Shown: positions 2,912 through 64,000 of the stretch, piece by piece | Numbering within the stretch: position 1 is the first letter of the stretch | Layout of the letters: the number at the start of each line of letters is the position of its first letter | Source of the DNA: a virus | DNA length: 64,000 nucleotides | Virus record (IMG/VR): IMGVR_UViG_2802428968_000003 | Reading direction: 5' to 3' (one strand) | Notes under the pieces: generated by a model | What the model was told of the DNA's origin: nothing | What the model saw: the letters and a program-made list of their open reading frames with translations, nothing else | Databases searched by the model: none | Made by a program: the position numbers and the translations under genes

Positions 2912-3709
2912 ATGGGCTGGATAGACCGACTGCGCGGGCGGGAGCGGCCGTCCACCGGAGACGCGGCGTCGGCGGACGTCGGTGTCCCGGACCTCGCCGA
3001 ACCCGTCTACGCGCGTGCGCTCGTGCTCCAAGTTGATCACGACGCGGCGATCATCGAGGTCCAGCCGCCGGGCCGAGCCTCCTTCCGAGCGGAACTGCGC
3101 AGCGGCACGGATCCAGAGAGCTTCACCGGACTGGTCATCCGCTGGCACGCCCCAGTGATCATCGACGGGGCCGATCCGAAACGCGTGATCCTGCTCGAAC
3201 CACCGTGCGGCCCGGATCTGCCGCTCGTGCCAGATGATCTGCAGGCGATCCGAGACGCCCGGGACCTGCGCACGAGCGCCTTGGCGGCACTGTACCCGCC
3301 GCCCTCCGCCGCCGAACTGGCCAACCTGATGACACCGACCGCGTCGGCGGCGCACCCGGCCTGGGACGCCGTCTGCTACCGGCTCGGCCTGCTGACGACG
3401 CCCGAGGCCCAGGCCATCCTCGATCACATCCGCCGTGACGGAAACGCCTGGGTTCGAGCAGAAGCCGAGCTGTACTCCTGGGGCCCGAGCATCCCCGACG
3501 ATCTACGCAAGCAGGTCGGGGCGTTCCTGTCGCATCTGCATGATGTCGCCCCGCAGGGCCGCGGTATCGATCGCGGGCCGTTCTGGACACTCGGCGTCGC
3601 GGCCCTGATGCGCGACCTCGCCCCCAACGACGTCGACGCCCGAGTCTTCGAACTGGTGATGGGTCCGTTCGTCGACGTCTGCGGCCCGCTGCCGGAGCAG
3701 CTGCTGTAG
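2912..3709 (+). CDS. hypothetical protein (265 aa)
   Basis: Clean ORF following gene 2149..2904. No recognisable motif. Confidence 0.5.
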   Translation: MGWIDRLRGRERPSTGDAASADVGVPDLAEPVYARALVLQVDHDAAIIEVQPPGRASFRAELRSGTDPESFTGLVIRWHAPVIIDGADPKRVILLEPPCGPDLPLVPDDLQAIRDARDLRTSALAALYPPPSAAELANLMTPTASAAHPAWDAVCYRLGLLTTPEAQAILDHIRRDGNAWVRAEAELYSWGPSIPDDLRKQVGAFLSHLHDVAPQGRGIDRGPFWTLGVAALMRDLAPNDVDARVFELVMGPFVDVCGPLPEQLL

Positions 3710-3722
3710 CGCGTTGCTCGGT

Positions 3723-4493
3723 TCACAGCGTTGGGAAGCCCTCCGGTTCTCCCCGGCAGGGCGCGAGCCAGGACAGTCGCCGGTCGCAGCCCACATCGAC
3801 CATGCTGACTGGCGATCGGACCTGGTAGACGACGTAGGCGTCCGCGCCCAATCGGGCATCGATACCTATTTGCGTGTGTGCAGTGTCGGGGTCGTCCGGG
3901 GTGGGCATCGTGCAGCGGTCCGGCTGATGAGACGGCGGTACTCCTTCGGGATTCATCCACCAGAGACCTGTCGCAAACTCGTCGATCCTGCTGGCACCGA
4001 CGTCGGGGGTCAGCACGTCGAAGAGTGGCTCGGCACAGGAGGGTTCACCCGCAGAGTGGCCACGGAGGCGCTGTGCGACCTGCGCTGCGTCATCGGCATC
4101 GGGCGGCAGCGCGTAGATCTCGTAGGCCAGGAGCGCGCATTGTTGCCAGTAGAACATGACCACGTCCTGCTCACCGTCGCCGTCGCTGTAGCGCGGGGAC
4201 ATCCAACACGAGACCTGAGTCCATGAGCGCGCCGGGTTTCCTAAGCTCGCGAGCGGTGGCCGGAACTCGTCCTGTTTGGCGAGCAGTTTTGCGCGTCCGG
4301 TGGAGACGTCGTCAACCAGCTGACGGGCGTTGTTCGCCTTGAGGATCCCCGAGACGGGGCCGGGAACGAATACGAAAAGTGCCAGCACCACCACCCCGCT
4401 GAGAACACCGAACGTCCGGCGGCGGCGCGGTGGCCACGGCACCGCAGTCGCTTCCACGTCCGCTGGTTCCTGCCCATCACCCATACACGCCAC
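3723..4493 (-). CDS. hypothetical membrane-anchored protein (N-terminal TM), start 4493 (GTG) or 4484 (ATG)
   Basis: ORF with N-terminal hydrophobic helix VLSGVVVLALFVFVPGPV. Last gene of the leftward operon, convergent with the plus-strand operon. Confidence 0.45.
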   Translation of the reverse strand: MACMGDGQEPADVEATAVPWPPRRRRTFGVLSGVVVLALFVFVPGPVSGILKANNARQLVDDVSTGRAKLLAKQDEFRPPLASLGNPARSWTQVSCWMSPRYSDGDGEQDVVMFYWQQCALLAYEIYALPPDADDAAQVAQRLRGHSAGEPSCAEPLFDVLTPDVGASRIDEFATGLWWMNPEGVPPSHQPDRCTMPTPDDPDTAHTQIGIDARLGADAYVVYQVRSPVSMVDVGCDRRLSWLAPCRGEPEGFPTL

Positions 4494-4526
4494 GATATCG
4501 ACGCGGGTGCACCCGGCCTTCGCGCC

Positions 4527-5042
4527 TCAACTGAGCGCACCGAGGATGGCGACTGTGGTCCATGCCGCGGCGACGGCTGCCAGTGCGAGCGACACCCACA
4601 GCAACGCCCAGAACGCACCAGAGCCGTCACGCGGACCACGCGCCGACCAGAGCAGGGCGATACCCACTCCAAGCCCGTTCGCGGCGATCCCGAGTGCGAC
4701 CACGGGTAGCGCGAACATGCACGCGACGACGAAGAGAGCGGAGATCAACACCAGGATCGTCAGCGCCGCGCGAGTCCACCCTTGCTCGGGATCGTGCCGG
4801 CGGCGCAGGACGGTCTCGAGGATGCTGAACCCGGGGAAAGAAGCGATGAGCCCGCCCATCACGGTCAGCGAGTAGAACACCGGCGCGAACAAGAGCGCCT
4901 TGTTCTCCGCGGGGACGTTGCCGGTCGTCGCACCGAGGGCAAGCATCCCCGTGAACAACAGTGCGCCCAGGATGAGCGGTGCCGTCCCCGTGACGGACGC
5001 ACGATCTCCCGCGCCCCTGGGGGCCGCGCTCTGTCTACTCAC
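4527..5042 (-). CDS. 4-TM membrane protein (171 aa)
   Basis: GTG at 5042-5040 overlaps the TGA of upstream gene 5039..5356 (GTGA). Multi-TM C-terminal part of ORF 4527..5318. Resembles the TM half of 7149..7850. Confidence 0.5.
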   Translation of the reverse strand: MSRQSAAPRGAGDRASVTGTAPLILGALLFTGMLALGATTGNVPAENKALLFAPVFYSLTVMGGLIASFPGFSILETVLRRRHDPEQGWTRAALTILVLISALFVVACMFALPVVALGIAANGLGVGIALLWSARGPRDGSGAFWALLWVSLALAAVAAAWTTVAILGALS

Positions 5043-5356
5043 CGCCGCCGTTCCCAGTCGACGAACCAGGTGGACTTTCGGTTCGGTTTCTTTGGGTCGT
5101 AGCGGATCCAGTGCTTGCTGCCGACGTAGGGCTTGTGGGTGCGCGTCATGGCCTTGTGATCGTGCTCGATACCTTGGGAGTCGGTGAAGCGCAGGATGAC
5201 GTCGTAGTACGCGTGGACGTTGCTGCCCTTCGAGCGCTTCACCTCGACCACCTTCGCCCGCACCCGCGGCCCGGTGAGCCGGATACTCCGAGCACGCTCG
5301 GCGCGGCGGTGTCGCCACCCGAACAGAGCGCCGAGGAAGTTCTTTGCGCGACTCAT
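5039..5356 (-). CDS. small soluble DUF3592-like beta-domain protein, family A domain without TM
   Basis: KVVEVKRSKGSNVHAYYDVILRFTDSQGIEHDHKAMTRTHKPYVGSKHWIRYDPKKP matches the family A domain pattern. ATGA overlap with upstream gene 5353..5895. Confidence 0.5.
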   Translation of the reverse strand: MSRAKNFLGALFGWRHRRAERARSIRLTGPRVRAKVVEVKRSKGSNVHAYYDVILRFTDSQGIEHDHKAMTRTHKPYVGSKHWIRYDPKKPNRKSTWFVDWERRR

Positions 5357-5895
5357 GTCACTGGGCCTTCTGCGGGATCTGGTGCATCGACGAACCCGAG
5401 GAACAACACATCCTTCAGGTCGTCCGGGTCGCCGGTGTTGTGACGGAACCGGACCATCTGTCCAAGCTCCGGCGCCGTGCGCTCAGACACCCGGCAGGTG
5501 CGACGGATGCCCCCATTCGGAAGCCTGGCCGCGATCGTGATGTCGTATGCGGGCAGTGCCTCTGGATCCGTGTGTTCATCGACAACGATCTTGGTGATAG
5601 TGCCGACGGTTTCGTCACCGTCGGCATACCGTGCGACGTCAAGCCTGAACGAGGCCAGGCACCACGGGAGGATCGAAACCACGAGTACTGCGAAGGCTGC
5701 GAGGAAGACCCACCACGGGTCCGGCTTCCCGAGGACTTCGCGGATCGCAGCCACGACGACGGTGATCACGAACCCCGTCAACCCGAGGCAGGCCAGCCCG
5801 AAGAAGACGCGCTTGAGGAACACCCACCGGCGGATCCGCGCCCGGGTCTCGGGCGTCCGCGCCAGGGCCATCCACGCTGTGGCGTCGCGGTTCAC
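5353..5895 (-). CDS. DUF3592-like membrane protein, family A paralog
   Basis: N-terminal AWMALARTPETRARIRRW motif shared with the paralogs at 8668 and 9285. Two TM helices. C-terminal MVRFRHNTGDPDDLKDVLF. Confidence 0.7.
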   Translation of the reverse strand: MNRDATAWMALARTPETRARIRRWVFLKRVFFGLACLGLTGFVITVVVAAIREVLGKPDPWWVFLAAFAVLVVSILPWCLASFRLDVARYADGDETVGTITKIVVDEHTDPEALPAYDITIAARLPNGGIRRTCRVSERTAPELGQMVRFRHNTGDPDDLKDVLFLGFVDAPDPAEGPVT

Positions 5896-6529
5896 GAGAC
5901 GAACCTGCGCTTCCCGTTTAGGAACGGCGACCCTGCTGCGGGTTGTTGGAGGCTTGTGAACTCGGTGTTGCCGTGGAGGCCGGTGATCAGGTAGCCGCTG
6001 CGTCGCACGTCGTCGTGTGCTTCGGTGAGCAGAACCATGGTGTCGGCCAGCTCCGGATCGGCGAAGGCGTACACGTGCCAGCTGCTCTCGGGTGTGAACT
6101 GGTCGATCGACGCCTCGTTGATGAGATCGCCCAGCCAGGCTGTGTGTGTCTTCCCGTCGGCTCCGTCGTAGTCGACGATGACCTTCTTCGTTTTTGCTTC
6201 CGCTGTGGTGTCAGGTTGGTCCCATTCGCGGATCTCGCGCACGCGCGCCACCCGGGGGTGTGGTCCAGCGCGGGCAGTGGTGTGCTCGACATCGCCTGGA
6301 GCCACCCGACGCCGCACGCGATCGCGACCACGAGAATGGCGAAGAACAGCATCACGCCGCGGACAGTCCCGTCGAGCGGCAAGGACAAGATGCCCCAGCT
6401 CAGCAGGACCGAGCTGGTCAGGAACAGTCCGATCCATGTTCGACCGTCGGTCCAGATCGAGCCGCGCGAACCGTTCACCGGACCTAGCCGGCGGCTGTCT
6501 GCTGCGCCGGTCACGACTCGATCCTCCAC
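5892..6529 (-). pseudogene. frameshifted family C paralog: 2-TM N-terminal half in one frame, conserved C-terminal domain in another
   Basis: ORF 5987..6529 supplies the TM helices and the LPALDHTPGW segment, which aligns to LPAIDRTPRV of the paralog 6511..7152. ORF 5892..6641 supplies the C-terminal domain WHVYAFADPELADTMVLLTEAHDDV. The frame switch lies near 6247, at a G5 run (cacccgggggtgtgg). Confidence 0.45.
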
Positions 6530-7152
6530 TTGGAATCCTGGCTGAAGAATGTCGATCCCGGGCGAGGTTTCCGGAACCGACCGGTGTGCACTTCGCCCCG
6601 GACCCCGAGCCAGAGGTAGATGCCCGAGCGCAGCACCTCATCGTGGGCCTCCGTCAGGAACACCACGGTGTCCGCGAGCGCTGTATCGCGGAACGCGTAC
6701 ACCTGCCAGGTGCTCCCGATGGGGAAGCGATCGAGCCAGGATTCATCGACGTCATCGGCGAGATGCACTTCGTATTGTTTGCCACCCCTGCCCTGATAGG
6801 TCACGTACAGGCCGGGCCAACCGGTCACTGAGTCGGTGCCCTCGTTCGCCGAGACCGTCGCAACGCGCGGGGTCCGGTCGATGGCCGGCAGGGTGTCGAG
6901 AGATTTCGGGCTGAGAAGCACTGCGCGCAGGATCACGATGGCAGAGAAGAGCACGAGGAGTCCGATGAAAGCCCACATGAACACCGGCCCCAGCGCTACC
7001 AAGAGGACGGCGAGCCCAACGACCCCGATGACGCAGGCGATGACGATCGTCGGCATCACTCGGTCGTAGCGGTGGAACGGCATGTCGGGCCCGTACCCGA
7101 TGCCCAGCAGCCGCATCGTGACCCGGTCGAACACTGATCCGCACTTGCTCAT
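6511..7152 (-). CDS. 2-TM membrane protein, family C paralog
   Basis: Start MSKCGSVF at 7152-7150, ATGA overlap with upstream gene. Two TM helices. C-terminal domain WQVYAFRDTALADTVVFLTEAHDEV. Confidence 0.6.
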   Translation of the reverse strand: MSKCGSVFDRVTMRLLGIGYGPDMPFHRYDRVMPTIVIACVIGVVGLAVLLVALGPVFMWAFIGLLVLFSAIVILRAVLLSPKSLDTLPAIDRTPRVATVSANEGTDSVTGWPGLYVTYQGRGGKQYEVHLADDVDESWLDRFPIGSTWQVYAFRDTALADTVVFLTEAHDEVLRSGIYLWLGVRGEVHTGRFRKPRPGSTFFSQDSKWRIES

Positions 7153-7850
7153 GACGACATCTCTTCGATCCGTGCTTGCGCCCGGTCCCTGCGGTAAGCG
7201 CATGCAGCGTATAACCAGAAACCGAGCGGGATCGCGACGATGCTGGCCGGGAACAGCACCGCGGGGTTCGTCCAGCCAGGGAAGCCGTCGAACGGATGAT
7301 TTCCGAGGAGGAGCATGCCGATGAGAAGCCAGCATGCCGTCGGGACGACGAGCATGACCCCGCCCCAGCCGATCATGAAGCACAGGCTCGCGAGAACGCC
7401 CCAGATCCGGTAGCCAAGCGTCCCAGGACCGTGCGGCCGGAACGGTGCCAGCTCTCCGTCGAGCTCCGCCGGCCATTGGACGACGAGCACGTCGCTGTCG
7501 TAGGTCGGATCGAGCGTCGTGTGGCGGATGACGACTTCCTTCCCGATGAGCCTGCGGCCCGCGGACGGGCCGAGCAGCGGGGACCGGACCGTCCGAGGCA
7601 ACGTCACATGCTTACCGTCGACACTCACGTCGATGTGAATGACGAGGTCGTCGTCTGTCGGCCCACCCTCGGGGGAGTCGTTCGACACGGCGTAGCGGAT
7701 GACGCCAACGGTCTCTCGCCCCTCAAGGAGCTCTTTGCGGAGCGGGGCAGGGCGCGGCTTCGGCGGAGGGGTGAACTCGCTGGCGATGCCCTTCCCGATC
7801 CGTCTGAGCACAGACCGAGCTGACCGTTGGCCGGGTGAATGATTGCTCAT
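7149..7850 (-). CDS. DUF3592-like domain (N-terminal) fused to a 4-TM module
   Basis: ATG at 7850-7848 with GGAG seven nt upstream. VVIRHTTLDPTYDSDVLVV domain followed by four hydrophobic helices. Same architecture as the gene pair 5039..5356 plus 4527..5042, but fused. Confidence 0.6.
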   Translation of the reverse strand: MSNHSPGQRSARSVLRRIGKGIASEFTPPPKPRPAPLRKELLEGRETVGVIRYAVSNDSPEGGPTDDDLVIHIDVSVDGKHVTLPRTVRSPLLGPSAGRRLIGKEVVIRHTTLDPTYDSDVLVVQWPAELDGELAPFRPHGPGTLGYRIWGVLASLCFMIGWGGVMLVVPTACWLLIGMLLLGNHPFDGFPGWTNPAVLFPASIVAIPLGFWLYAACAYRRDRAQARIEEMSS

Positions 7851-8665
7851 GATCCGCTCCTCATCGAGTCCCAGTCGATGCCGATCGAGTCGGCGTGCTC
7901 GGTGGTCCACCACACGGGCAGGGCGTGCGCATGGTGCCAGGGGTTGCCCAGCCGAGCCTTACGGCGGCGGGGGATCGCGAGGAACCAGCGGTGGTGGCGG
8001 TCCACGCAGGTGATGAAGCCGCCCTTCGCGTCCGGGCCGAAGAGCAGCTCGGTGGGGAGCACCTCCGGGTCCTCCCGCTTCCATCGCCGCCAGAACTCGG
8101 CATAGGCCGACGGATCCTGCTCGAGCTGGGTCGCCCACTGTTCGCAGGCGCTGACGATGCGCATCGCTTTCTCGCCGTCCATCCGAACGGTCTCGCCTTC
8201 GATGCCTCCGCCGCCGAGCAGGATCGTCGCGACGGCGGCGCTCGACGGGTGCTTGCGCAGCCGCAGCCGGTACGGGTGCGCCTCGCACAGCATCGCGGAA
8301 TCCACGACCCACGCGGTCGGCCCCCAAGACCGGCGCGGGTACAGCAGCAAGAAGACACCGAGCGGCACCATCACTGCGGCTACCAACGCCGCCATTCCGA
8401 CGACGAGCCAGTCCTCCGGCTCGCCCGAGAGCGACCGAAGCAGCATCATCACGCTTATCGCCGTGACGATGAGCAGCCCGACCCCGGCAACCTGGTTCAT
8501 CAGACCGCTCATCTTCTGCAGCCGGGTGCCGAGATCGTCCATACGGGGGATCGCCTCAGGCCGGTCGGAGAGACGGTGCGTCCGCGCGCGCTCTTCCACG
8601 GCGGCCCACGCCGTGGCCGGATTGCCCGGCCAGGGCTGCACTGCGATCTCATCTACTCGGCTCAT
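7847..8665 (-). CDS. 2-TM membrane protein, family B paralog
   Basis: ATG at 8665-8663 (GAAGGGG RBS, TGA-CG-ATG coupling to the upstream gene). C-terminal domain carries ELLFGPDAKGGFITCV. The rest of the 470-aa ORF is out-of-frame noise. Confidence 0.6.
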   Translation of the reverse strand: MSRVDEIAVQPWPGNPATAWAAVEERARTHRLSDRPEAIPRMDDLGTRLQKMSGLMNQVAGVGLLIVTAISVMMLLRSLSGEPEDWLVVGMAALVAAVMVPLGVFLLLYPRRSWGPTAWVVDSAMLCEAHPYRLRLRKHPSSAAVATILLGGGGIEGETVRMDGEKAMRIVSACEQWATQLEQDPSAYAEFWRRWKREDPEVLPTELLFGPDAKGGFITCVDRHHRWFLAIPRRRKARLGNPWHHAHALPVWWTTEHADSIGIDWDSMRSGS

Positions 8666-8667
8666 CG

Positions 8668-16982: not shown

Positions 16983-17273
16983 GAATACAACCGCCCCTTT
17001 CAGCCGACGCTGAACGCGCCCCTGGGCAGATCATTACACACAGATGGTTGCCATGTCGAGAAAACCCCAGCTATTGAGTTAGCCACTTCAGCACGGGCTT
17101 GCATCTCCGCTGGTAGACACAGCATGAAGACCCTCGCGCGGTACCGCGATCTTGGAGCAACATCGACCATGGGACGCCACGTCTCGGTCGGCGGGTCGGC
17201 CAGTGTTCGCCAGATCTTCATATCCTGACCGCGATCTAGCCGTCATGTCGGACTCTCGGCGTAAAACTCGCCC

Positions 17274-17681
17274 ATGGACGCATTCACGGCCATCTGCGAG
17301 GTCATCAACGCAATCCCGGACTTCTTCCGGGAGAAGCGGCTCGTACGCAATGAGGTTAGGCAGGGTTGGAGTGACGAAACGGCGATCTTGTCGCAGGCAG
17401 AGATCGCCGTGAAGGTGGCGCGGGCACTGTTGCACCGCCTCGGCGACAGGGGCTATCAGGTGGTCTGGCTGCCACCGGTCAATGAGGATGAATTCGGCAC
17501 TCGCACGGTGCAAGTACCGCTGTCCTTCCAGCCATGGGCCGACGGCGAAGTACGGCTCAACGAGCACGGTACGGGCGTAGTGATCGCACACGTACCGTCG
17601 CGGCTGCCCATACGGGATGCACCCCAGCTGGCAGCGGCACTGCTGGCAGCGCATCGTGCGACACGCACCAAACCGGAGTAA
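17274..17681 (+). CDS. hypothetical protein (135 aa)
   Basis: More protein-like than the overlapping minus-strand ORF 17088..17654. Confidence 0.4.
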   Translation: MDAFTAICEVINAIPDFFREKRLVRNEVRQGWSDETAILSQAEIAVKVARALLHRLGDRGYQVVWLPPVNEDEFGTRTVQVPLSFQPWADGEVRLNEHGTGVVIAHVPSRLPIRDAPQLAAALLAAHRATRTKPE

Positions 17682-45446: not shown

Positions 45447-45947
45447 CTACCCGGCGTCGGCGAATTCGGGTTGCTCGCGCAAGTGCCAGCCCGGCGCAAC
45501 GTCCAGGTGGTTGTAGTAGTGCTGGAACAGCTCGATAGCTTCAGCGGCGGATAGGACCTCTGACGGTCGTACCAGGTACTCACTGTCGCCGTTGTAGACC
45601 GTCTCTGACTGCTCGGATTCATTTGCCGCAGAAGGCCGTCCGATGGTGTACATACGCCGAACGCCATCGGACTCTTTCCGGCGGATTTCGACGGTCAGGC
45701 GCTCGGCGGTGGCCCCGCAAGTCTGAATCCACTCATGAGGGTATGGGAACTCGTCGTACTCAGTGCCATCGGGGACCTTATAGATCGAGAACGCCACGTC
45801 TGCGACACCATCCCGATCTTCGCCGATCGAGTTGATATTTATTTCGATCTGCCGGTGCGCCTTCCCTGGCTCAGCGCCCATCCACATAATGAAATCTTTG
45901 TCGGTAGTGTATGTATGCATCTGAAAACCATTGCGCTCAAGACTCAT
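45447..45947 (-). CDS. putative immunity protein of the polymorphic toxin
   Basis: Low-GC ORF directly downstream of the toxin, ATGA overlap at 45944-45947. Confidence 0.45.
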   Translation of the reverse strand: MSLERNGFQMHTYTTDKDFIMWMGAEPGKAHRQIEININSIGEDRDGVADVAFSIYKVPDGTEYDEFPYPHEWIQTCGATAERLTVEIRRKESDGVRRMYTIGRPSAANESEQSETVYNGDSEYLVRPSEVLSAAEAIELFQHYYNHLDVAPGWHLREQPEFADAG

Positions 45948-47596
45948 TCGCCCGCCACCTTAATTACCTCTACCTCAGTGACTTTCACCGTCTCGACTTC
46001 CCCGCTCCTGTTTGTGATCGTAACGTAGGCCGGATTCTCTGGAGTTACGGCCGAGTCGAACGCTCGCTGCTCTGCATTGCGTGTGGCATCACCGGATTTG
46101 ACCTCAATACCTTTGTAAGTGCCGTCTGACTTCTGCGCCAAACCATCGTAGTAGCGGCCATTCTCGACCCCATCGACCTTGGCCTTACGACGCTCAGTGC
46201 TCACCCATTCGTCCGGGTTAGCGCGCCGATAACGATCGATACCCTCTGCCTCTGGTTGGCGACCGTATCCTCGGGCTGTGCCGCCTCGGCCTGTGAATGT
46301 GCCGATGGAATCGCGGTCGTCGCCACGGTTGATGCCCTCGCCGGGTCGTCCAGTCCGGGCCTCCATCACCGTCACGCCGTTGACCGCAGCCTCTTTCGAG
46401 AGGTCGAGGGCTGGCGGTATGGCGACGACCGCGCCACCAGCGAGTAAGCCCGCCCCGGCAACAGCGACAGGCGCCGCGACCGGTGTCGCGGCCCCACCGG
46501 TGAAGACCTCACCGACGCCCGCCGCAGCCATCATGTCGTAGCCGACCGCCATCATGCCGACTCCAGCTGCCATCTGGATTGTCTGGCCGGGGTTGTCGAT
46601 CATGGCCTGCCCCAAGGATGCAGTGGCGTTCACTACCGGGGCCACGGTGTTGTATATCTCGTTTCCGAAAAGCTCAACCTGCATCTGTACCAACGACTTT
46701 AGGGTGTCGATGACCATCGATGCGCCCTGGATGATCGGCGCCAGCAGCAGCGCGAGCGACTGCACTTCCGACTTGAACTGGTTGACGATGTTGCGGATGT
46801 CGGCGGCGATTTTCTTTATTTCGTCGTCGTCTTCGCCGGTAATCCAGTCCACGACCTGTTTGGCACCGGTCAGCGGATTTACCAAGCGGGCCAACAGGTC
46901 CAGTATCGATGCGTGCGCCGTATCGATCTTGGCCGCGTAGTCGTTGAGCTTGGTGCCCATGGTGCTGCACATGCCGCCGACCTCGCCGACAGCACCGTCA
47001 ATCGTCTTGAACGCGCTATCGATCTTGGGACCTTCGGGGATCTGCTGGGCCTGCGCGGTTGCCTGCGCCCCCGCTAGTCCGGCCTGCTGAGCGGTGAATG
47101 CCGCACCGGCAGCCGTCCACGCGGCGCCAGCGGCGCGCAGCTTCGCCGAATCACCATTGGGCCAAATCATTCCGATGAACGGCTCCACCAGGAACCAACC
47201 GGGTGGGTCGCCAACATCGCTACCCACCGCAGACGGTGGGGTCCCGGCCTTCACCGCGGGAGTGGGTGAGGCGGCGGGCAGTGGGTCGCCGCCCTTGCCG
47301 TCGATGTTGGATGCCACCTCGGCACGCGAATAGTTGGTCGCCGAGGCCCGGATGCCGTCAGCGGCCCGCCCGGCACCGTTGGACACGTCCACCATCGCCT
47401 CAAGGAGTTCCTTGGCTGACGAGTCATACGATCGCGCGAACACGATCCCGGCGGGGTCATCCCCACCCATACCGGCCGAACTCGACAGCGCCGACTGCAA
47501 TGCCGACAGCGCAGAGCCCCACCCGCCCACCGAGCTGGAGACCGTTCTACCGGCGCCATCGAGGGCAACCGGGTCGACATGAATCGGGGGTGCCAT
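45944..47596 (-). CDS. WXG100-type (ESX-secreted) polymorphic toxin with putative PD-(D/E)xK nuclease-like C-terminal domain
   Basis: Start MAPPIHVDPVALDGAGRTVSSSVGGWGSALSALQSALSS at 47596. Ala/Gly-rich helical middle. C-terminus YYDGLAQKSDGTYKGIEVKSGD has a D...EVK pattern. Confidence 0.5.
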   Translation of the reverse strand: MAPPIHVDPVALDGAGRTVSSSVGGWGSALSALQSALSSSAGMGGDDPAGIVFARSYDSSAKELLEAMVDVSNGAGRAADGIRASATNYSRAEVASNIDGKGGDPLPAASPTPAVKAGTPPSAVGSDVGDPPGWFLVEPFIGMIWPNGDSAKLRAAGAAWTAAGAAFTAQQAGLAGAQATAQAQQIPEGPKIDSAFKTIDGAVGEVGGMCSTMGTKLNDYAAKIDTAHASILDLLARLVNPLTGAKQVVDWITGEDDDEIKKIAADIRNIVNQFKSEVQSLALLLAPIIQGASMVIDTLKSLVQMQVELFGNEIYNTVAPVVNATASLGQAMIDNPGQTIQMAAGVGMMAVGYDMMAAAGVGEVFTGGAATPVAAPVAVAGAGLLAGGAVVAIPPALDLSKEAAVNGVTVMEARTGRPGEGINRGDDRDSIGTFTGRGGTARGYGRQPEAEGIDRYRRANPDEWVSTERRKAKVDGVENGRYYDGLAQKSDGTYKGIEVKSGDATRNAEQRAFDSAVTPENPAYVTITNRSGEVETVKVTEVEVIKVAGE

Positions 47597-47600
47597 CGCG

Positions 47601-47891
47601 CTATGCCCAGTTCTGCATGTTCTTGGCAGCGGCGCCTGTGTAATTGCCGTGCGCGGCGTGGCTCGCGCTACGTAGGCCCTTGAGCGCTTCGCGCATCTGC
47701 TCGGCGCCCTTGGCCCACTTCTCGTGCGCCTGCGTGTGGGCCGTGGCAGCTTCACCTGTGAAGGTGGCGTGCAGGTTGTGAACCTCGGTGTCCATGGCCG
47801 CTATCGACGCCTCGGCTCGCTGCTCAACCTCTGCCATGCGTTCGATGATCCGCATGAGCTCGTCGGGCACAACGCCGAATTCACCTGACAT
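47601..47891 (-). CDS. WXG100 (ESAT-6-like) protein
   Basis: 96 aa, helical hairpin composition, GGGGGAGAA RBS. Confidence 0.55.
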   Translation of the reverse strand: MSGEFGVVPDELMRIIERMAEVEQRAEASIAAMDTEVHNLHATFTGEAATAHTQAHEKWAKGAEQMREALKGLRSASHAAHGNYTGAAAKNMQNWA

Positions 47892-47900
47892 CTTCTCCCC

Positions 47901-48212
47901 CTACATTCCGTCAGCGGCGTTGACGTTGGCGGCGGTGGCCGCATCCTGGCCCACGAACGCATCCCCGGTGCTCGCCAACAAGCTGCCCATCTGCGCAAGG
48001 CCCTGGTGTACCAGCTTGGCGCCCTCGTACCACTGGAACCACCGCGTGGTGAACGCGCTCGCCGACCCACCAGACCAACCGGAGCCGACAAACCGCGACA
48101 CCTCGGCGTCGAGGGCATCCAGCTCCGTCGCCAAACCGCCTGCGGTCGCGGTGACCAATCGCGAAACCCGCTGCAACTCTTCTGGCGAAACCCCGAGGAC
48201 CCCTCCACTCAT
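47901..48212 (-). CDS. WXG100 (ESAT-6-like) protein
   Basis: 103 aa from MSGGVLGVSPEEL. Contains the SGWSGGSASAF W-x-G motif. Confidence 0.55.
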   Translation of the reverse strand: MSGGVLGVSPEELQRVSRLVTATAGGLATELDALDAEVSRFVGSGWSGGSASAFTTRWFQWYEGAKLVHQGLAQMGSLLASTGDAFVGQDAATAANVNAADGM

Positions 48213-48309
48213 TGCCGGATGGTATCGCCGCCGAGTTTGCCACCGCAATAGGAGTGCGAAGCGATACCCATCCGACCTGCACGTTTCGGCGGCATGCGCA
48301 GGGTTATTG

Positions 48310-48609
48310 CTATTCCGTCGCGATTCCAGACTGGTCGGGCACCGCTCTCAGTCCACGGCGCGGTGACCGAGCTTGTAAGTCTCGGACCGCTGCCGCGAAG
48401 CTATCGGCCATCCGGCGCACGTAGTCCTCATCGACGTAGGCCTTGGCCGACTGCCGGCTGATGCCCATCAGCTCGGCGGTCAGGTCGACTTTCGCCGAAA
48501 TACGCTCTCGCGCCATGGCCTCGGTCATGTTCAGGGCGTGCTGCTCAGCGAGATAGCGCACGAGCAACTGGGCGCGTTCATTCATCCAGGGGGACCGGCG
48601 AGCGGGCAT
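48310..48609 (-). CDS. hypothetical small protein with HTH-like segment, immediately downstream of int
   Basis: LTAELMGISRQSAKAYVDED. Start uncertain (ATG at 48609 or 48585). Confidence 0.35.
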   Translation of the reverse strand: MPARRSPWMNERAQLLVRYLAEQHALNMTEAMARERISAKVDLTAELMGISRQSAKAYVDEDYVRRMADSFAAAVRDLQARSPRRGLRAVPDQSGIATE

Positions 48610-48666
48610 TCGGAGACCATATGGGCATCCCCTCGTGCCCGCTGGCCGACCTCCTAGATGTGACAC

Positions 48667-49557
48667 CTACTTGTGACTGCGCTGTTCCATTCTCGATGCC
48701 GACGACCGCGAGGGGCACAAGTGCGACGCGAGCGAGTCGACGGACGCCGCTCCACGTCGGGTCGAGTAAGCGAGGTACCGCATGGTGGTCGCCAGGCTCT
48801 CGTGCCCCATCAATTCCTGGATATCGCGGAGGTCCGCGCCTTCGTCGGCGAGCACGGTCGCGAACCTGTGTCGCAGGGTGTGCAGCGTGTACGGGAGCCC
48901 GAGATTGGTTAGGAATTCCGCACCCACGACCGAGACGTAGTTGGGTGTGACTGGCCCGCCGCGGGGACGGCAGAACATGGTGCCGGGTCGGCTCAGCTGA
49001 ATTGCCAGACGTTGCATGACCTCGGGGGCAACTCGGACGATGCGTTGCTTCCCTCCCTTACCGTGCACGGTCAGGAAGGCGCCGCCGCCTTCATCGGGGC
49101 GAAAGTCGTTGCGTGACATCTGCGCGATCTCCCCAGCGCGCAGACCGCAGTATCCGGCCAATAGCAGCCATGCATGGATGTCAGTCCCGACAGGCGCGCC
49201 GGTCAGCGCGATCCGCAAGTGGTCCTCGGGGATGGGCCGGGCCATACGGCGCTGAATCTTCGGTTGCACCAAGTCTTTTGCGACGTATTCGCTCGTGCGC
49301 CCACATCGGTAGGCCCACTGATAGAAGGTGCAAACATGCGACGTGTAGGTCTGGATGCTAGACGGGCACACCCGCAACGAACCCTGCCAGGCCTCAAGCT
49401 GCTCCGGGGTGGCCTCCAGCAAAGATGTTTCCCCAAGCCATCTAGCTAATCTAGCAATCTGCCCCAAGCGGTGCTCGATCGTTTTAGCTGTGAAGTTCTT
49501 CAGCTTCAGATAACGAGCAAACTCTGAGACGACAGTGTCATTATTCACAGGTGACAT
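48667..49557 (-). CDS. int: tyrosine recombinase/integrase (XerC/D-like)
   Basis: C-terminal HTLRHRFATVLADEGADLRDIQELMGHESLATTMRYLAYS carries the R..H..R..H..Y catalytic signature. Confidence 0.8.
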   Translation of the reverse strand: MSPVNNDTVVSEFARYLKLKNFTAKTIEHRLGQIARLARWLGETSLLEATPEQLEAWQGSLRVCPSSIQTYTSHVCTFYQWAYRCGRTSEYVAKDLVQPKIQRRMARPIPEDHLRIALTGAPVGTDIHAWLLLAGYCGLRAGEIAQMSRNDFRPDEGGGAFLTVHGKGGKQRIVRVAPEVMQRLAIQLSRPGTMFCRPRGGPVTPNYVSVVGAEFLTNLGLPYTLHTLRHRFATVLADEGADLRDIQELMGHESLATTMRYLAYSTRRGAASVDSLASHLCPSRSSASRMEQRSHK

Positions 49558-49577
49558 AAGTACAGCCCGTCCTTTTG

Positions 49578-49967
49578 CTAGGAAACCGAACGGGTGGACT
49601 TGTTGCAGGTCAGTTGCTTCCCCGAGCGGAAACCGTGACCTGAGCTGGCGCGCCGGAACGCGGACTTATACGGTTCATACTCGTGAGTAAGAACTGTGCT
49701 ACTCGCCCCCTCCGTGGCTAGCTGCCCGCCCCACATGAGCCATTCGCGGCTCGCTCCGGTGGCCCGATGAATCGCCTGAATCTTCTCGGTGAGCTTGTGG
49801 GGACTGCGCCCGCTTTCAATCCCTTGTAGGGCATTCTCGGTCAATCCAGTGAGCTGGGAAAACTCCCTACGGCTCATCCTGAGCGCATTTCGCAGGACAA
49901 CAACCCTGGCGGCAAGAGTGTCTGCCGGAACCCAGTTGTTCCCGTGAAGTTTCTCTGCTGTCGTCAT
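49578..49967 (-). CDS. XRE/cI-like immunity repressor (start 49967; ORF extends to 50069)
   Basis: VVLRNALRMSRREFSQLTGLTENALQGIESG is an HTH. Sits 20 bp upstream of int on the same strand, divergent from cro. Confidence 0.6.
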   Translation of the reverse strand: MTTAEKLHGNNWVPADTLAARVVVLRNALRMSRREFSQLTGLTENALQGIESGRSPHKLTEKIQAIHRATGASREWLMWGGQLATEGASSTVLTHEYEPYKSAFRRASSGHGFRSGKQLTCNKSTRSVS

Positions 49968-49989
49968 GGGTAAATGATGACATCTCTGC

Positions 49990-50079
49990 AATCTGCATGC
50001 AAGAAGATTGCATGCTTGAGCTGCAAGTAAACGCATCATTCCCAAGTTATGCTTGCAATCAAATTTCATGCATGTAATT
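49990..50079. promoter_or_regulatory. low-GC divergent promoter/operator region with repeated TGCATGCA / TTGCATGC / GCTTGCAA motifs
   Basis: ctgcatgcaag, attgcatgcttg, gctgcaag, tatgcttgcaat, ttcatgcatg read directly. Confidence 0.5.
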
Positions 50080-50087
50080 ATTTCGGC

Positions 50088-50279
50088 ATGAGCGCAAAAC
50101 TTCTGCTGATCGAGGCTCGGCTCGGTGGTCGAAGACTCCCCGATCTGGTCGGCGCACGCCGGGCACAGGGCAAGTCATGGCAGGGCATCGCCAACGAAAT
50201 CCACGATATGACCGGCGTTGCGGTGTCCCGAGAATCCTTGCGTGCCTGGTGCAATCAGTCCAAGGCAGTGGCCTCATGA
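50088..50279 (+). CDS. Cro-like small HTH regulator
   Basis: MSAKLLLIEARLGG...SWQGIANEIHDMTGVAVSRESLRAW. Divergent from the repressor. Confidence 0.5.
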   Translation: MSAKLLLIEARLGGRRLPDLVGARRAQGKSWQGIANEIHDMTGVAVSRESLRAWCNQSKAVAS

Positions 50280-51052
50280 GCACACTCGTCGCCGTTTCTC
50301 CGTTCGACGCCATCCGACACCTGACCGACGGAGGCCGCGAGTACTGGTCGGCACGCGATCTCATGCCGCTGCTCGGATACGAGAAGTGGGAGCGGTTCGC
50401 CGACGCCATCAGCCGCGCCAAGAGCGCTGCACGCAACGCCGGGTATGACCCTGCGACGCAATTTCCCGGCGCCGGGAAATTGGTCTCCACCGGCAATGGA
50501 GCGCAGCGAGCGGTCGAGGACTACCACCTATCCCGGTACGCCTGCTATCTCGTCGCACTCAATGGCGATCCACGCAAGCCCGAGATCGCTGCCGCCCAGA
50601 CATACTTCGTCATCAAGACCCGTGAGGCCGAGACTGCCACGGCCGCGCCCGCGCTCACAGGCACCGACCTACTCGCCGCCGCCGTGCTCGAAGCTCAGCG
50701 GATGATCGAGGCGAAGGACGCTCGGATCGCGGAGCTTTCACCCAAGGCCGACCTGGCGGACACCTACCTCACGGCACAAGGCGGGTCCCGGCTGATCCGG
50801 GAAGCCGCGAAGCTGCTCGGCATGCGCGAGCGCGAGTTTCGCCAGTGGCTCTTGGATGAGCGGCTGATCTTCGCTAAACACGCTCCGTGTGGCGCGGTGC
50901 AATACGACCACTACGCGCAGTTCACGCACTACTTCCAAGCGCACGAGCACGTCGTCGCGCACTCATGGGGCAGCTGCGCCCACTACACCTTGCGCATTCT
51001 GCCGCGAGGGATGGAACTCATCACCGCACGCTTGGGCCGAATCTCCAAGTAA
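50276..51052 (+). CDS. phage antirepressor (Bro-N/KilA-C type)
   Basis: ATGA overlap with cro. YWSARDLMPLLGYEKWERFADAISRA is Bro-N/AntA-like. C-terminal LTAQGGSRLIREAAKLLGMREREFRQWL is KilA-C-like. Confidence 0.6.
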   Translation: MSTLVAVSPFDAIRHLTDGGREYWSARDLMPLLGYEKWERFADAISRAKSAARNAGYDPATQFPGAGKLVSTGNGAQRAVEDYHLSRYACYLVALNGDPRKPEIAAAQTYFVIKTREAETATAAPALTGTDLLAAAVLEAQRMIEAKDARIAELSPKADLADTYLTAQGGSRLIREAAKLLGMREREFRQWLLDERLIFAKHAPCGAVQYDHYAQFTHYFQAHEHVVAHSWGSCAHYTLRILPRGMELITARLGRISK

Positions 51053-51155
51053 TCGCAAGTCCCACAACTGAATAAGTAAAGACGCTGGCGGTCCCGTCGC
51101 CAAACAGAAACCGCCAGCGTCCCCTACCAAACCAATCCTACTGAGAGGACTTGGC

Positions 51156-61616: not shown

Positions 61617-61771
61617 GGCGCACGCGCCCCGGCGACGCTGACCGGATAGCCGAGCTCTGCTCCGATGCTGGTAAGCCGTTGCAGCCCTGGCAAATTCAGT
61701 TCCTCACCAGGCTCGAACAGCACGATACCGATGTCCAATTCGCCGAAATGGTAAGGGGATTCAACCGTTGA
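61613..61771 (+). CDS. small hypothetical protein (52 aa)
   Basis: ATGA overlaps on both sides. Confidence 0.3.
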   Translation: MRRTRPGDADRIAELCSDAGKPLQPWQIQFLTRLEQHDTDVQFAEMVRGFNR

Positions 61772-62970
61772 CGAAGTGCAAGCGGTGCGAACGCGCAACC
61801 GATCTGTTCGTGTGCAAGGCCTGCATCGCGGAGCTGCGCAAGCGCCTGGCCGACCTGCCGTGGTGGATCGATCGGCTCACCGAGACCGCTGTCGGGCAGG
61901 CGAACCTGGGCGACGGTGCACGCAAGGGCGAGCGCCGCGACGTGTTGCACGGCGACGACACGCTCGTGAGCCACGTCGAGCCGTTCCCCCGCGACAAGGA
62001 CACCACCCCGACCGACAGGGACCGCCGGGACAGGCACCAGGCGGCACTGTGGCATGCCCTGGCGCTCGGCCGGGTCAACGGACGCGCCAGCGACGAGCTC
62101 GACCGAATCCACAACGCACTGTCGACGACCATCCGCGACATGTGCGAGACGCGCGGGCTGGACGTGCCCGAGTTCCGCACCCGGCCAAGGCCTCTGCCGG
62201 TGGTCGTCGACTCGGATGCACGGCGGCCGGCAGATCGGTTCAGCCTCGATTCGGCGCCGCCGGCCCGGGCGGGCTCGTGTCGACGGTGCTTCGTCACGCT
62301 GCCCACCTCGGCGGCTGGGCCACTGTGCGACGACTGCGACGGCGCCCCGGAGATGTGCACGGCCGACGACTCCCCCGCGGATGACCTACGCGTGACCTAC
62401 GCCGGAAGGCGCGGCGACGAGACGCACTCAGTCGCCACGACAGCGCGCATGGCCAAGTGGCTGCACCGGCACGCGTCCAACATCGCGCTCCAGGAGAACG
62501 GCGCCGAGATCTGCGACGAGATCGAGCAGGTGTACCGGTCAATCACACGCGTGGTGAACCGCCCACCCGAGCCCATGATCATCGGGCCATGCATCACCGA
62601 CCCGGCACCCGACGAAGTACTCGCCGTGCGGGGACGCAAGGGCGACAAATCAACCCGGTGCGGGTACGCACTCATGGCACCGAGCCACAGCGGCTCAATC
62701 GTGTGCCCCCAGTGCGACACCGCGCATTCGGTGGCCGACGTGCTGGCACGCAACCTCGGCGAGCTCGACGACCGCAACGCGACCGTGCGCGAGCTGGTCG
62801 ACGTGGTGCTCCCCCGCCTCGACGAACACGTGCCACAATCGACCATCGAGCGGTGGATTAGACGCGGGTGGGTACCGGTACGCGGCCGGGACGCCCACGG
62901 GCACCAGATGGTTCGCATTGGGGATGTGCGCGCGGTGCGAGCGGGGAGGCCGAGGAACACCAGGGCGTAA
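61768..62970 (+). CDS. gene X: Cys-rich (zinc-ribbon) protein with C-terminal excisionase-like HTH; full-length copy
   Basis: CKRCERATDLFVCKAC, CRRCFV...CDDC, CPQC clusters. C-terminal TVRELVDVVLPRLDEHVPQSTIERWIRRGWVPVRGRD...VRIGDVRAV resembles excisionase-family HTH_17. Confidence 0.5.
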   Translation: MTKCKRCERATDLFVCKACIAELRKRLADLPWWIDRLTETAVGQANLGDGARKGERRDVLHGDDTLVSHVEPFPRDKDTTPTDRDRRDRHQAALWHALALGRVNGRASDELDRIHNALSTTIRDMCETRGLDVPEFRTRPRPLPVVVDSDARRPADRFSLDSAPPARAGSCRRCFVTLPTSAAGPLCDDCDGAPEMCTADDSPADDLRVTYAGRRGDETHSVATTARMAKWLHRHASNIALQENGAEICDEIEQVYRSITRVVNRPPEPMIIGPCITDPAPDEVLAVRGRKGDKSTRCGYALMAPSHSGSIVCPQCDTAHSVADVLARNLGELDDRNATVRELVDVVLPRLDEHVPQSTIERWIRRGWVPVRGRDAHGHQMVRIGDVRAVRAGRPRNTRA

Positions 62971-63013: not shown

Positions 63014-64000
63014 TTGCTAGCGGACGCCCGATATCTGCTTCGATATGTCAAGATTGGGTGCGTGATCCAGATATGGGAAACTCGCTACGCTGCAGGCAAG
63101 AGCGTCGCAAGAGCGATGAGAATCGCATGCTGGCTGGTGGCCGCAGAGTACGTCGTCCTGGTGGGTTCATTCGTATTGATGGCGCTATTCGACGAACGCA
63201 CTTTAGGGTATACGGTGGCCGCTTACGGCGCGCTGACCTTTATGATGCTGGTGCTCGCATCCTTGTGCATAACTGGAGCACTCTCCGTAGTTCTTGAAAG
63301 CGCGGAGAAACAGCGCCTTCGGGAAACCCCTTCGACTGTCTGGGGGATGATTTGGACCCCCTCGCCGCAGAATTTGATGTTTGCCACGGCTTTCATGCCG
63401 GCACTGGCGCTAATTGGTCCACTGCTCGCGGCTAAGGGATTGGATCCTAATCACTCCCCGATACCCGTGTTGAACTGCTTTATCATAATTGCGATGGCAT
63501 CCCTTGGCGCGATGCATGTTCGTTGCTTCTGGCGTATTTGGCGGAAGATGGATAGAGAGGTCAAGAAGGGCGAAGAGGATCTATTCCGTGATTTCGACTG
63601 GACACTCTTTGACAGCGACGACAGGGCGCGCTTTCGCGAGAAGTATCCAAACACACACTGGAAGTTCCCCGCAGATGCGGATTGTGACGCTGAGATCGAC
63701 TGCTTCATCAGGCGTGCCAGGAGTATGCACTCCAGGATTCAATTGTTTAATGCGGTAATTGCATTGTTGATCACATTTGCCGTCGGAGAGCTATTCAGGC
63801 GAACAATTACCGCTTGGGTCGAGATAGCAAGAAATAACGGTAGTACGCTTCTCGCGATGGGGGTGACTTTTGCGCTGTTCGCAATAATGGGATTCTTCTT
63901 TCTGCCCCTTCAACTCCAGCGGCGGGCCACTCGCTATGAGGACTTGCGGAAGGATTATGAAAAGTATCTTGAGAAAAGGGACACGCCCCCTGCGGCGTGA
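63014..64000 (+). CDS. low-GC multi-TM membrane protein (cargo following gene X)
   Basis: Several hydrophobic helices. AT-richer than the flanking sequence. Stop at 63998-64000. Confidence 0.45.
   Translation: MLADARYLLRYVKIGCVIQIWETRYAAGKSVARAMRIACWLVAAEYVVLVGSFVLMALFDERTLGYTVAAYGALTFMMLVLASLCITGALSVVLESAEKQRLRETPSTVWGMIWTPSPQNLMFATAFMPALALIGPLLAAKGLDPNHSPIPVLNCFIIIAMASLGAMHVRCFWRIWRKMDREVKKGEEDLFRDFDWTLFDSDDRARFREKYPNTHWKFPADADCDAEIDCFIRRARSMHSRIQLFNAVIALLITFAVGELFRRTITAWVEIARNNGSTLLAMGVTFALFAIMGFFFLPLQLQRRATRYEDLRKDYEKYLEKRDTPPAA

Follow-up and report, generated by a model that had tools for sequence, protein, structure and literature searches.

The 64,000-nucleotide stretch of DNA analyzed here (the window; IMG/VR virus record IMGVR_UViG_2802428968_000003) corresponds to positions 359731-423730 of contig FVND01000004.1 in assembly GCA_900136445.1; three fetched loci are identical base for base, and there are no Ns. 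Between 48.3 and 50.3 kb the window carries genes for a tyrosine integrase (int, product Int), an immunity repressor (rep, product Rep) and a divergently encoded cro-like protein, and this region is shown by gene order and homology to be the lysis/lysogeny and integration switch of a temperate Mycobacterium abscessus phage of cluster MabC, with integration-dependent immunity of the type known from phage BPs. The switch itself has already been described; the new part is its configuration, an uncut phage attachment site (attP) in a chromosomal contig that also holds direct evidence, in its sequence, of exchange with a conserved prophage remnant (R). Overall, the window shows a known system in an unusual, only partly resolved arrangement, which the initial annotation, made from the letters alone, had interpreted largely correctly but incompletely.

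The int-repressor-cro region and its attachment site

In a BLAST search against deposited phages, the module was 96-100% identical to M. abscessus phages of cluster MabC. The window is 99.3% identical to prophiCCUG48898T-1 over 31 kb (18729-49695), and positions 48335-51100 are 96% identical to and collinear with the virion genome of phiGD57-1, in which the annotated order is helix-turn-helix (HTH) protein, tyrosine integrase, immunity repressor, HTH protein and antirepressor. The initial annotation had proposed an int-repressor-cro immunity region without a host junction beside int; the identity of the region is borne out by gene order and homology to MabC phages, and the absence of a junction by the collinearity with phiGD57-1. 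MabC phages integrate at attB-13, located at the start of MAB_3947, carry attP inside rep and have integration-dependent immunity (Dedrick 2021, PMC8092301). Assignment to this group is borne out by the genome similarity, the gene order, the position of Int beside a 295-amino-acid (aa) adh_short gene and a right attachment site (attR) found there, beyond the window. The exact Int protein occurs in 730 blocks of the sequence collection and adjoins adh_short/MAB_3947 in nine of the ten contexts shown, about 125 bp from the 295-aa adh_short gene.

Both int and rep lie on the minus strand, separated by exactly 20 bp, and all of the coordinates first given for them hold, with Pfam and PHROG matches that agree (Table 1). 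Int is without an arm-binding N-domain. The spacer between rep and the cro-like gene (49968-50090), initially described as a low-GC stretch of about 120 bp, measures 123 bp and has 39.8% GC, compared with about 64% GC around it. The cro-like open reading frame (ORF) matched no Pfam or PHROG family; its relatives, of 63 aa (192 bp) in phiGD57-1 and 77 aa in prophiCCUG48898T-1, are both annotated as HTH DNA-binding. Likewise, the small gene downstream of int gave no Pfam or PHROG match, and its product is labeled 'helix-turn-helix DNA binding domain protein' in relatives.

Rep is 98.5% identical to phiGD57-1 gene 35, annotated as 'immunity repressor', and comparison of its C-terminus with this long form confirmed that the repressor is full-length, as had been claimed, in its 129-aa viral form. 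The attP common core lies unrecombined within rep (Table 1). An attachment site had been assumed beside int; the core is instead inside the repressor gene, at 49678-49695, a position that defines integration-dependent immunity, and no att core joined to host DNA was found flanking 48300-48670. Deposited prophage records end at window position 49695 and start at 49678-49681, both within the repressor ORF. In every prophage record of the phage database, Rep is split at residue 96, and the 129-aa form is present only in the virion genome phiGD57-1. Residues 97-129, coded by 49581-49679 and followed by the stop codon at 49578-49580, are the extension lost on integration, and the 96-aa prophage form at one left attachment site (attL, in L021) is identical to the window Rep over residues 1-96. 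In ordinary lysogens the 96-aa repressor ends ...TVLTHE, with a TAA stop codon completed by the first host base, and adjoins a 276-aa adh_short gene; formation of a stop codon at attL has been described for MabC phages (PMC8092301). The repressor is truncated at attL in relatives, and the window copy is uncut. Because only the virion genome has the 129-aa Rep and the prophage records are split at residue 96, the window carries the phage (attP) form of the known switch. Features of a BPs-type system that are present comprise an attP core in the repressor ORF, int directly downstream on the same strand and a divergent cro-like gene. Neither Rep nor Int carries an ssrA-like -AA tag (C-termini ...STRSVS and ...MEQRSHK, respectively), in agreement with the report that MabC Rep and Int are without such tags (PMC8092301).

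Within the 90%-identity cluster of the repressor, listed 96-aa forms occur on 362 contigs and 129-aa forms on 22 (2 + 11 + 9), the exact window protein being found on two contigs. A look-up of the cro-like gene gave ordinary attL contexts in 22 of 24 cases and attP-type contexts in the other two. Given 22 contigs with full-length repressor genes, the uncut configuration, or assembly behavior that mimics it, is recurrent. A variant of the 129-aa Rep with int on one side and cro and early genes on the other is present on 14 further contigs (L040-L044 among them), including a 1.58-Mb contig (L040) and a phage-sized contig of 53 kb (L041).

At least four copies of a TGCATGCA-like motif had been noted in the spacer. 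A motif search bore this out and defined them better, as four half-sites (GCWTGMAA) that make up two 21-bp inverted repeats of 8-5-8 layout, O1 and O2 (Table 1); an outer palindrome, TGCAATCT-N10-AGATTGCA, spans 49987-50012. With up to two mismatches allowed, O1 and O2 are the sole matches to the 21-bp pattern in 64 kb, against 0.08 expected, a result that shows restriction to the spacer and not independent discovery, as the pattern was derived from O1 and O2 themselves. Of the nine half-sites in the window, four fall in the spacer, and a cluster of at least three was obtained in none of 200 shuffles. Both repeats are invariant in two relatives in which the bases between them vary, which is weak evidence at an overall identity of 97%. 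We infer that O1 is a putative repressor operator at the repressor promoter (P_rep) and O2 a putative operator at the early lytic promoter; an upstream ATG at 50049 would extend the cro-like product to 76 aa and would overlap O2. A scan of 48200-50400 for sigma-70 consensus promoters and terminators gave no matches, and such a scan covers mycobacterial and leaderless promoters poorly.

Joints with a cryptic remnant at tRNA-Lys

Host DNA extends from the left end of the window to a tRNA cluster ending in tRNA-Lys (11557-11632), which is followed by about 2.8 kb of R (R-left, Table 1). In complete genomes such as AP028613.1, R lies alone between tRNA-Lys and a major facilitator superfamily (MFS) transporter gene, and this locus of AP028613.1 is 99.7% identical to window positions 2930-15171; the same empty-site allele, R without phage, was seen in L008 and L030-L038. 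The 160-aa protein of R is present in 1766 blocks of the collection, with the same context in nine of the nine places shown. As it occurs alone in complete genomes, in this number of blocks and in a constant context, R is a fixed cryptic remnant. The truncated repressor that had been reported at tRNA-Lys is indeed there and belongs to this other element; immunity repressors from phage IdentityCrisis and from three prophages of cluster MabC share about 41% identity with its HTH remnant. No second copy of the tRNA-Lys core, which would mark a tandem junction, was found elsewhere in the window.

The window becomes MabC phage DNA from 14.2 kb, at the left copy of gene g26. Seven copies of g26 were aligned, namely that of R alone, the left copy of the window, the right copies of the continuing source contig (L005) and of another assembly (L007, FSCZ01000004.1), and three ordinary phage copies. 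At all informative sites through 14436 the left copy matches the remnant, and from 14479 onward it matches the phage. The right copy switches the other way, being of phage type through the equivalent of 14509 and of remnant type, for about 560 bp, from the equivalent of 14539. The two share an identical block of 102 bp (14437-14538) that is phage-like in both and resembles a conversion tract; doubling of the phage variant with loss of the remnant variant is not what a graph mis-join would produce. The chimeric allele is present in no deposited MabC phage (best match 94.7%), and the left chimeric 100-aa product is on record in the source contig only; read as a 124-aa ORF, it is not on record. 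At a spacing of 49,861 bp, the two copies lie one phage genome (49.86 kb) from each other, so that reciprocally chimeric direct repeats flank one genome length, as in Campbell-type insertion. The left boundary is shown by this alignment to be a homologous-recombination joint with R at about 14.4-14.5 kb.

Beyond the window, the right g26 copy of the source contig stops at a microhomology deletion joint (...GACAGGC joined to AAACTCTGAGACG...). After a second, exact copy of a 179-bp block that comprises 41 bp of the int 5' end, the 3' end of rep and the core (Table 1), the contig continues with MAB_3947, a glyoxalase gene, PHO4 and onward to sodA. The right g26 copy, the deletion joint and the attR of attB-13 close the phage DNA about 1.0-1.15 kb past the window end; an att site outside the window had been proposed as one of two possibilities, and the search past 64 kb located the attR about 1.15 kb beyond the end. 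Within the source contig, the right repeat does not continue into the right part of R, the deletion joint and the attB-13 attR being found instead. In L007, the right copy does run into the right part of R, followed by a 52-bp copy of the tRNA-Lys 3' end (attR) and the MFS gene, and this contig is, as its order of segments indicates, the reciprocal product of recombination with R. The phage DNA of the window is thus shown to be circularly permuted relative to ordinary prophages, with attP intact, a recombination joint as its left anchor and an attR of its own kind just outside the window.

Two descriptions of the right end were rejected: continuation of the window as L007 (right part of R, MFS gene), because the coordinates give L005, and the presence of about 1.3 independent phage copies, because the region holds one genome length plus repeats. 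Neither the g26//int' deletion joint nor the attP junction was found in exact scans of viral contigs, and a contig scan with a host HTH-cupin protein, aimed at the distance from tRNA-Lys to attB-13, returned only unrelated loci of Kitasatospora and Clostridia. In an independent assembly (L039; GCA_900138105.1, FVQJ01000004.1), about 830 bp separate int from MAB_3947. The order there is int, rep (129 aa) and spacer to the equivalent of window position 50032, followed by the first 212 bp of int, the rep 3' end, the core and MAB_3947, which constitutes a tiny independent tandem remnant at attR with a full-length rep and O1 and with no cro. As this independent assembly shows one, tandem remnants at attR do occur.

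Several other features of R and its surroundings were recorded. The repressor remnant at tRNA-Lys itself comes from a phage with integration-dependent immunity; its prophage form ends ...WDLRIKSP, with a TAG stop codon from the tRNA. In the left arm of the matching attR (L007, 18255-18393) the frame continues to ...PERKAA, an ssrA-like -AA tag, and a 1-bp difference in a G-run between the two core copies breaks naive reconstruction of the frame. At 11860, an old deletion joint, also present in genomes with R alone, abuts the repressor without its 5' end and start codon to a gene X' without its first 163 bp or so. X' forms a 91.7% direct repeat with the phage's own gene X (11860-12894 and 61931-62965, self-BLAST). 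The segment after X consists of two minus-strand genes in R, as opposed to one membrane protein of 312-328 aa in the phage. Accessory genes of lower GC (53-61%), encoding membrane, secreted or Gln/Pro-rich products, occupy 12930-17654 on the minus strand and 63014-64000 on the plus strand, between gene X and the HNH/terminase region. At the right end of R (L007 17823-19748; L031, L032), the phage DUF8277 gene is called as one 641-aa ORF that passes through 67 bp of HNH and the tRNA-Lys copy at attR before it enters the MFS transporter of the host, probably a recurrent gene-calling fusion. Other integrase-bearing elements, with integrases of 384-417 aa and in some cases BREX, FtsK or resolvase genes, occupy the tRNA-Phe/Asp/Glu/Lys cluster on the side opposite R in L031, L033, L034 and L036-L038. 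The host DNA also contains a CCGTGT hexamer repeat (1950-1991). In the phage DNA, g26 encodes a D5-like transcriptional regulator (PHROG 323); its reading frame (14308-15169, minus strand) is split into 100-aa and 179-aa ORFs, as in several relatives, and is a single 268-aa ORF in L004, so the split is either a frameshift or programmed. A polymorphic toxin cassette adjoins int on the left (45447-48212, minus strand), and other MabC copies have a different toxin at the same place (672 aa, Tox-REase-5).

Table 1. Features of the window (window coordinates unless stated otherwise)
Feature	Position	Strand	Remarks
R-left	11584-14436		left part of cryptic prophage remnant R, ~2.8 kb
Repressor (HTH) remnant	11584-about 11870	-	5'-truncated, reads into tRNA
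Gene X'	11860-12905	+	5'-truncated
Two R-left genes	12930-14198	-	
g26, left copy	14211-15171		crossover zone 14437-14538
Toxin-cassette immunity protein	45447-45947	-	
Toxin	45944-47755	-	550-603 aa, WXG100-like domain
Two WXG100 genes	47601-47891, 47901-48212	-	
HTH-annotated small gene	48310-48609	-	downstream of int; matches prophiCCUG48898T-1 gene 71, phiGD57-1 gene 33
int, tyrosine integrase	48667-49557	-	296 aa; Pfam PF00589 Phage_integrase, E 2.8e-21; PHROG 1/216
179-bp block	49517-49695		exact repeat at 64974 (window-plus-L005 coordinates)
rep, immunity repressor, viral uncut form	49578-49967	-	129 aa; HTH_3/HTH_31 (Pfam); PHROG 2328 'transcriptional repressor'
attP common core	49678-49695		TACTCGTGAGTAAGAACT, 18 bp; Rep codons 91-96 and first two bases of codon 97; comparison of attL (L021), attR (L010) and window
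O1, putative operator	49995-50015		perfect inverted repeat GCATGCAAGAAGATTGCATGC = GCATGCAA-GAAGA-TTGCATGC; 28-48 bp upstream of repressor start
O2, putative operator	50051-50071		imperfect inverted repeat GCTTGCAATCAAATTTCATGC = GCTTGCAA-TCAAA-TTTCATGC; 20-40 bp upstream of ATG at 50091
cro-like gene	50091-50279	+	62 aa; HTH protein annotation in relatives
Antirepressor (Ant)	50276-51052	+	Bro-N and KilAC/ANT; first early gene after cro; Pfam PF03374, PF02498; PHROG 130 Ant
Gene X of the phage, full-length	61768-62970	+	PHROG 908; repeat part 61931-62965

History of the locus and competing explanations

We consider it likely that the window holds the known MabC switch with attP uncut because the phage copy was joined on its left to R by homologous recombination and is not anchored through its own att site. 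In the ordinary cycle described in the literature, the 123-bp spacer has Rep and Int read leftward from it, and cro, Ant and the early genes rightward. Int recombines the core with attB-13 at the start of MAB_3947, which cuts rep, leaves the 96-aa repressor at attL and moves int and a rep 3' stub to attR. Of the two forms in BPs, the short one alone is stable and gives immunity, and the same is presumed for MabC in spite of the missing -AA tag; by analogy with BPs, the 96-aa repressor would bind O1 and O2, shut off the rightward cro/Ant/early promoter and modulate its own, and the 129-aa product of the window would be short-lived. To arrive at the present arrangement, a MabC genome would have exchanged with R through g26, either as a circle inserted in Campbell fashion or by inversion between R and a prophage at attB-13. 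In complete genomes, the position of R is about 0.75-0.8 Mb and that of attB-13 about 4.0 Mb, and their relative orientation, read across different genomes, appears inverted. A 15.4-kb int-less derivative of the early region carrying attP would have recombined with attB-13 through Int to give the joint g26//int'-rep3'-core-MAB_3947, and the same cell probably has the early region a second time, next to an attL that supplies the 96-aa repressor. The outcome could be a phage inside R together with a mini-prophage at attB-13 (state A), or the contig as assembled together with a junction from attL to the right part of R elsewhere (state B). These states differ only in how ends are paired across a 15.3-kb repeat, which is beyond short-read resolution; both hold the whole int beside a full-length rep, and both predict an attL making the 96-aa repressor. 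The exact topology may be an inversion, a two-site arrangement or a collapsed repeat.

A number of observations weigh against this history. Every simple version needs the 15.3-kb early region (49.7-65.0 kb) twice, yet the short-read contig runs straight through it, so the contig may pass through a repeat that was collapsed. In its assembled form it connects loci located at about 0.76 and about 4.0 Mb in other M. abscessus chromosomes, which requires a large inversion. A look-up of the 96-aa repressor displayed ordinary attL contexts of other assemblies only, with no attL copy seen in the source genome, and the assembly to which L007 belongs yielded no left chimeric g26 product. Rep binding at O1 and O2 and the promoters themselves are inferred, the sigma-70 scan having given none. 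Rep and Int are without -AA tags, and instability of the 129-aa form is assumed by analogy.

Among the alternatives, an assembly artefact at the 179-bp repeat is unlikely in either of its forms. The chromosome would really read int-attR-MAB_3947, and the attP junction would come from free or replicating phage or from a 15.4-kb circular deletion derivative without int (rep-cro-Ant-RecET-RepA...g26//int') that was built into the chromosome during assembly. The block of 41 bp of int, rep 3' end and core is present twice exactly, and swapping the exits from it gives a normal attR plus a closed 15.4-kb circle. In addition, phage is released by MabC-type lysogens, whose cultures contain detectable attP (PMC9934374), BPs-type lysogens induce at a high rate (PMC4557955), and full-length rep occurs on phage-sized or short contigs (L041, L043, L044). 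A repeat of 179 bp, however, can be bridged by ordinary paired-end libraries; free wild-type phage DNA leaves the g26//int' joint and the chimeric g26 copies, which are unique sequences, unexplained; and the independent contig L039 has a smaller structure, int-rep(full)//int'-rep3'-attR, beside MAB_3947.

That same contig, with its comparable remnant at attR, fits a tandem double lysogen made by Int at attB-13 (of the prophiT36-2a/b type), whose second copy was later deleted, with no role for recombination with R. Integration of attP into attR followed by deletion gives int-attP-cro and then a partial copy ending in attR, and such a route was favored for T36 (Amarh 2023, PMC9934374). We nevertheless judge this account improbable for the window, as the left end of the first copy is the joint with R and not attL/MAB_3946, attL and attR of one attB do not enclose the copies, and the second copy is only 15.3 kb. 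Moreover, the g26 of the partial copy contains remnant-type sequence and switches at the same point as the L007 copy, and the partial copy therefore derives from exchange with R; an Int-made tandem can be part of the history and is not sufficient. The initial annotation had concluded that the element starting at int either was not integrated through this site or belonged to a second prophage with its att outside the window. The site is indeed uncut and the att outside, but nothing starts at int, and a separate second prophage unrelated to the structural genes on the left is extremely improbable. Although int, rep and cro usually lie at a prophage end and no att site reaches the right end of the window, the whole series of structural, lysis, toxin, int, rep, cro and early genes runs collinear with individual MabC genomes, in the virion as well as in permuted prophage records. 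The repeat spacing is one genome length, and no att core flanks int. A second prophage beginning at int was rejected on the basis of collinearity with phiGD57-1 and prophiCCUG48898T-1, and the region is one permuted MabC genome.

A further reading, which we hold to be unlikely, is that a MabC phage is stably chromosomal with attP uncut and only the 129-aa Rep at the locus, such that either the untagged long form is functional, and immunity in this cluster does not strictly depend on integration, or a 15-kb int-less mini-derivative, integrated at attB-13 solely to yield the truncated repressor, acts in trans, with R serving as a homology landing pad. If this were true, the near-universal 8-kb R would allow entry of MabC phages into the chromosome, or its inversion, in an Int-independent way. 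For recombination with R as set out above, the significance lies in a phage that supposedly needs its repressor cut for immunity and yet sits in an assembly with the gene uncut, its recombination partner being a cryptic remnant present in nearly all M. abscessus strains. If the structure is real, the locus would be a test, set up by nature, of the presumed inactivity of the long repressor in MabC phages and would exemplify how homologous recombination can bring in prophages and rearrange the chromosome on a large scale in a pathogen of clinical importance, and prophage finders relying on attL and attR would mis-call such regions.

Relation to known systems

The MabC phages prophiCCUG48898T-1, prophiGD51-1 and phiGD57-1 share with the window the gene order, the 18-bp core, attB-13 and the split of Rep at residue 96. 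In deposited MabC prophages, the site is recombined to attL and attR, whereas here it is uncut, the genome is circularly permuted and its left side is joined to the tRNA-Lys remnant.

Integration-dependent immunity is known from BPs, Brujita and Charlie (Broussard 2013, as cited in other papers), and these phages likewise have attP within the repressor gene, int directly downstream, a divergent cro and palindromic operators in the rep-cro spacer. The viral BPs repressor of 136 aa undergoes degradation, its 103-aa prophage counterpart is active, and DNA is bound by both (Villanueva 2015, PMC4557955); in MabC phages, inactivity of the long form is presumed (PMC8092301). The viral and prophage forms differ by 33 residues in both systems (129 and 96 here, 136 and 103 in BPs). 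The BPs operator is a 12-bp palindrome found at five loci, whereas the repeat described here is of 8-5-8 layout, with no copies elsewhere in the phage DNA, and the BPs-type -AA tag, which is typical and not universal, is absent from Rep and Int. A tblastn search with the window Rep returned no BPs or other M. smegmatis phage among its matches.

The tandem prophages prophiT36-2a/b (Amarh 2023, PMC9934374) resemble the present locus in having more than one head-to-tail pass of DNA from phages with integration-dependent immunity and a hybrid att between. There, two different phages lie between attL and attR at one tRNA site, and the junction still gives a truncated repressor; homologous recombination was considered and judged highly unlikely for T36, the sole tandem M. 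abscessus prophages described (PMC9934374). Unlike in T36, a true attP forms the junction here, rep is full-length, and one boundary consists of a joint made by homologous recombination.

Campbell-type insertion or inversion through homologous recombination between prophages is known, for example, from lambdoid prophages of E. coli O157 and from Streptococcus pyogenes prophages. As in such cases, direct repeats of a shared segment flank the genome, these are reciprocally chimeric, and an empty-site allele exists. Unlike in those cases, the target here is a fixed 8-kb remnant, and the immunity of the phage needs site-specific integration; because of this dependence, the recombination route leaves the repressor gene in its presumed-inactive form.

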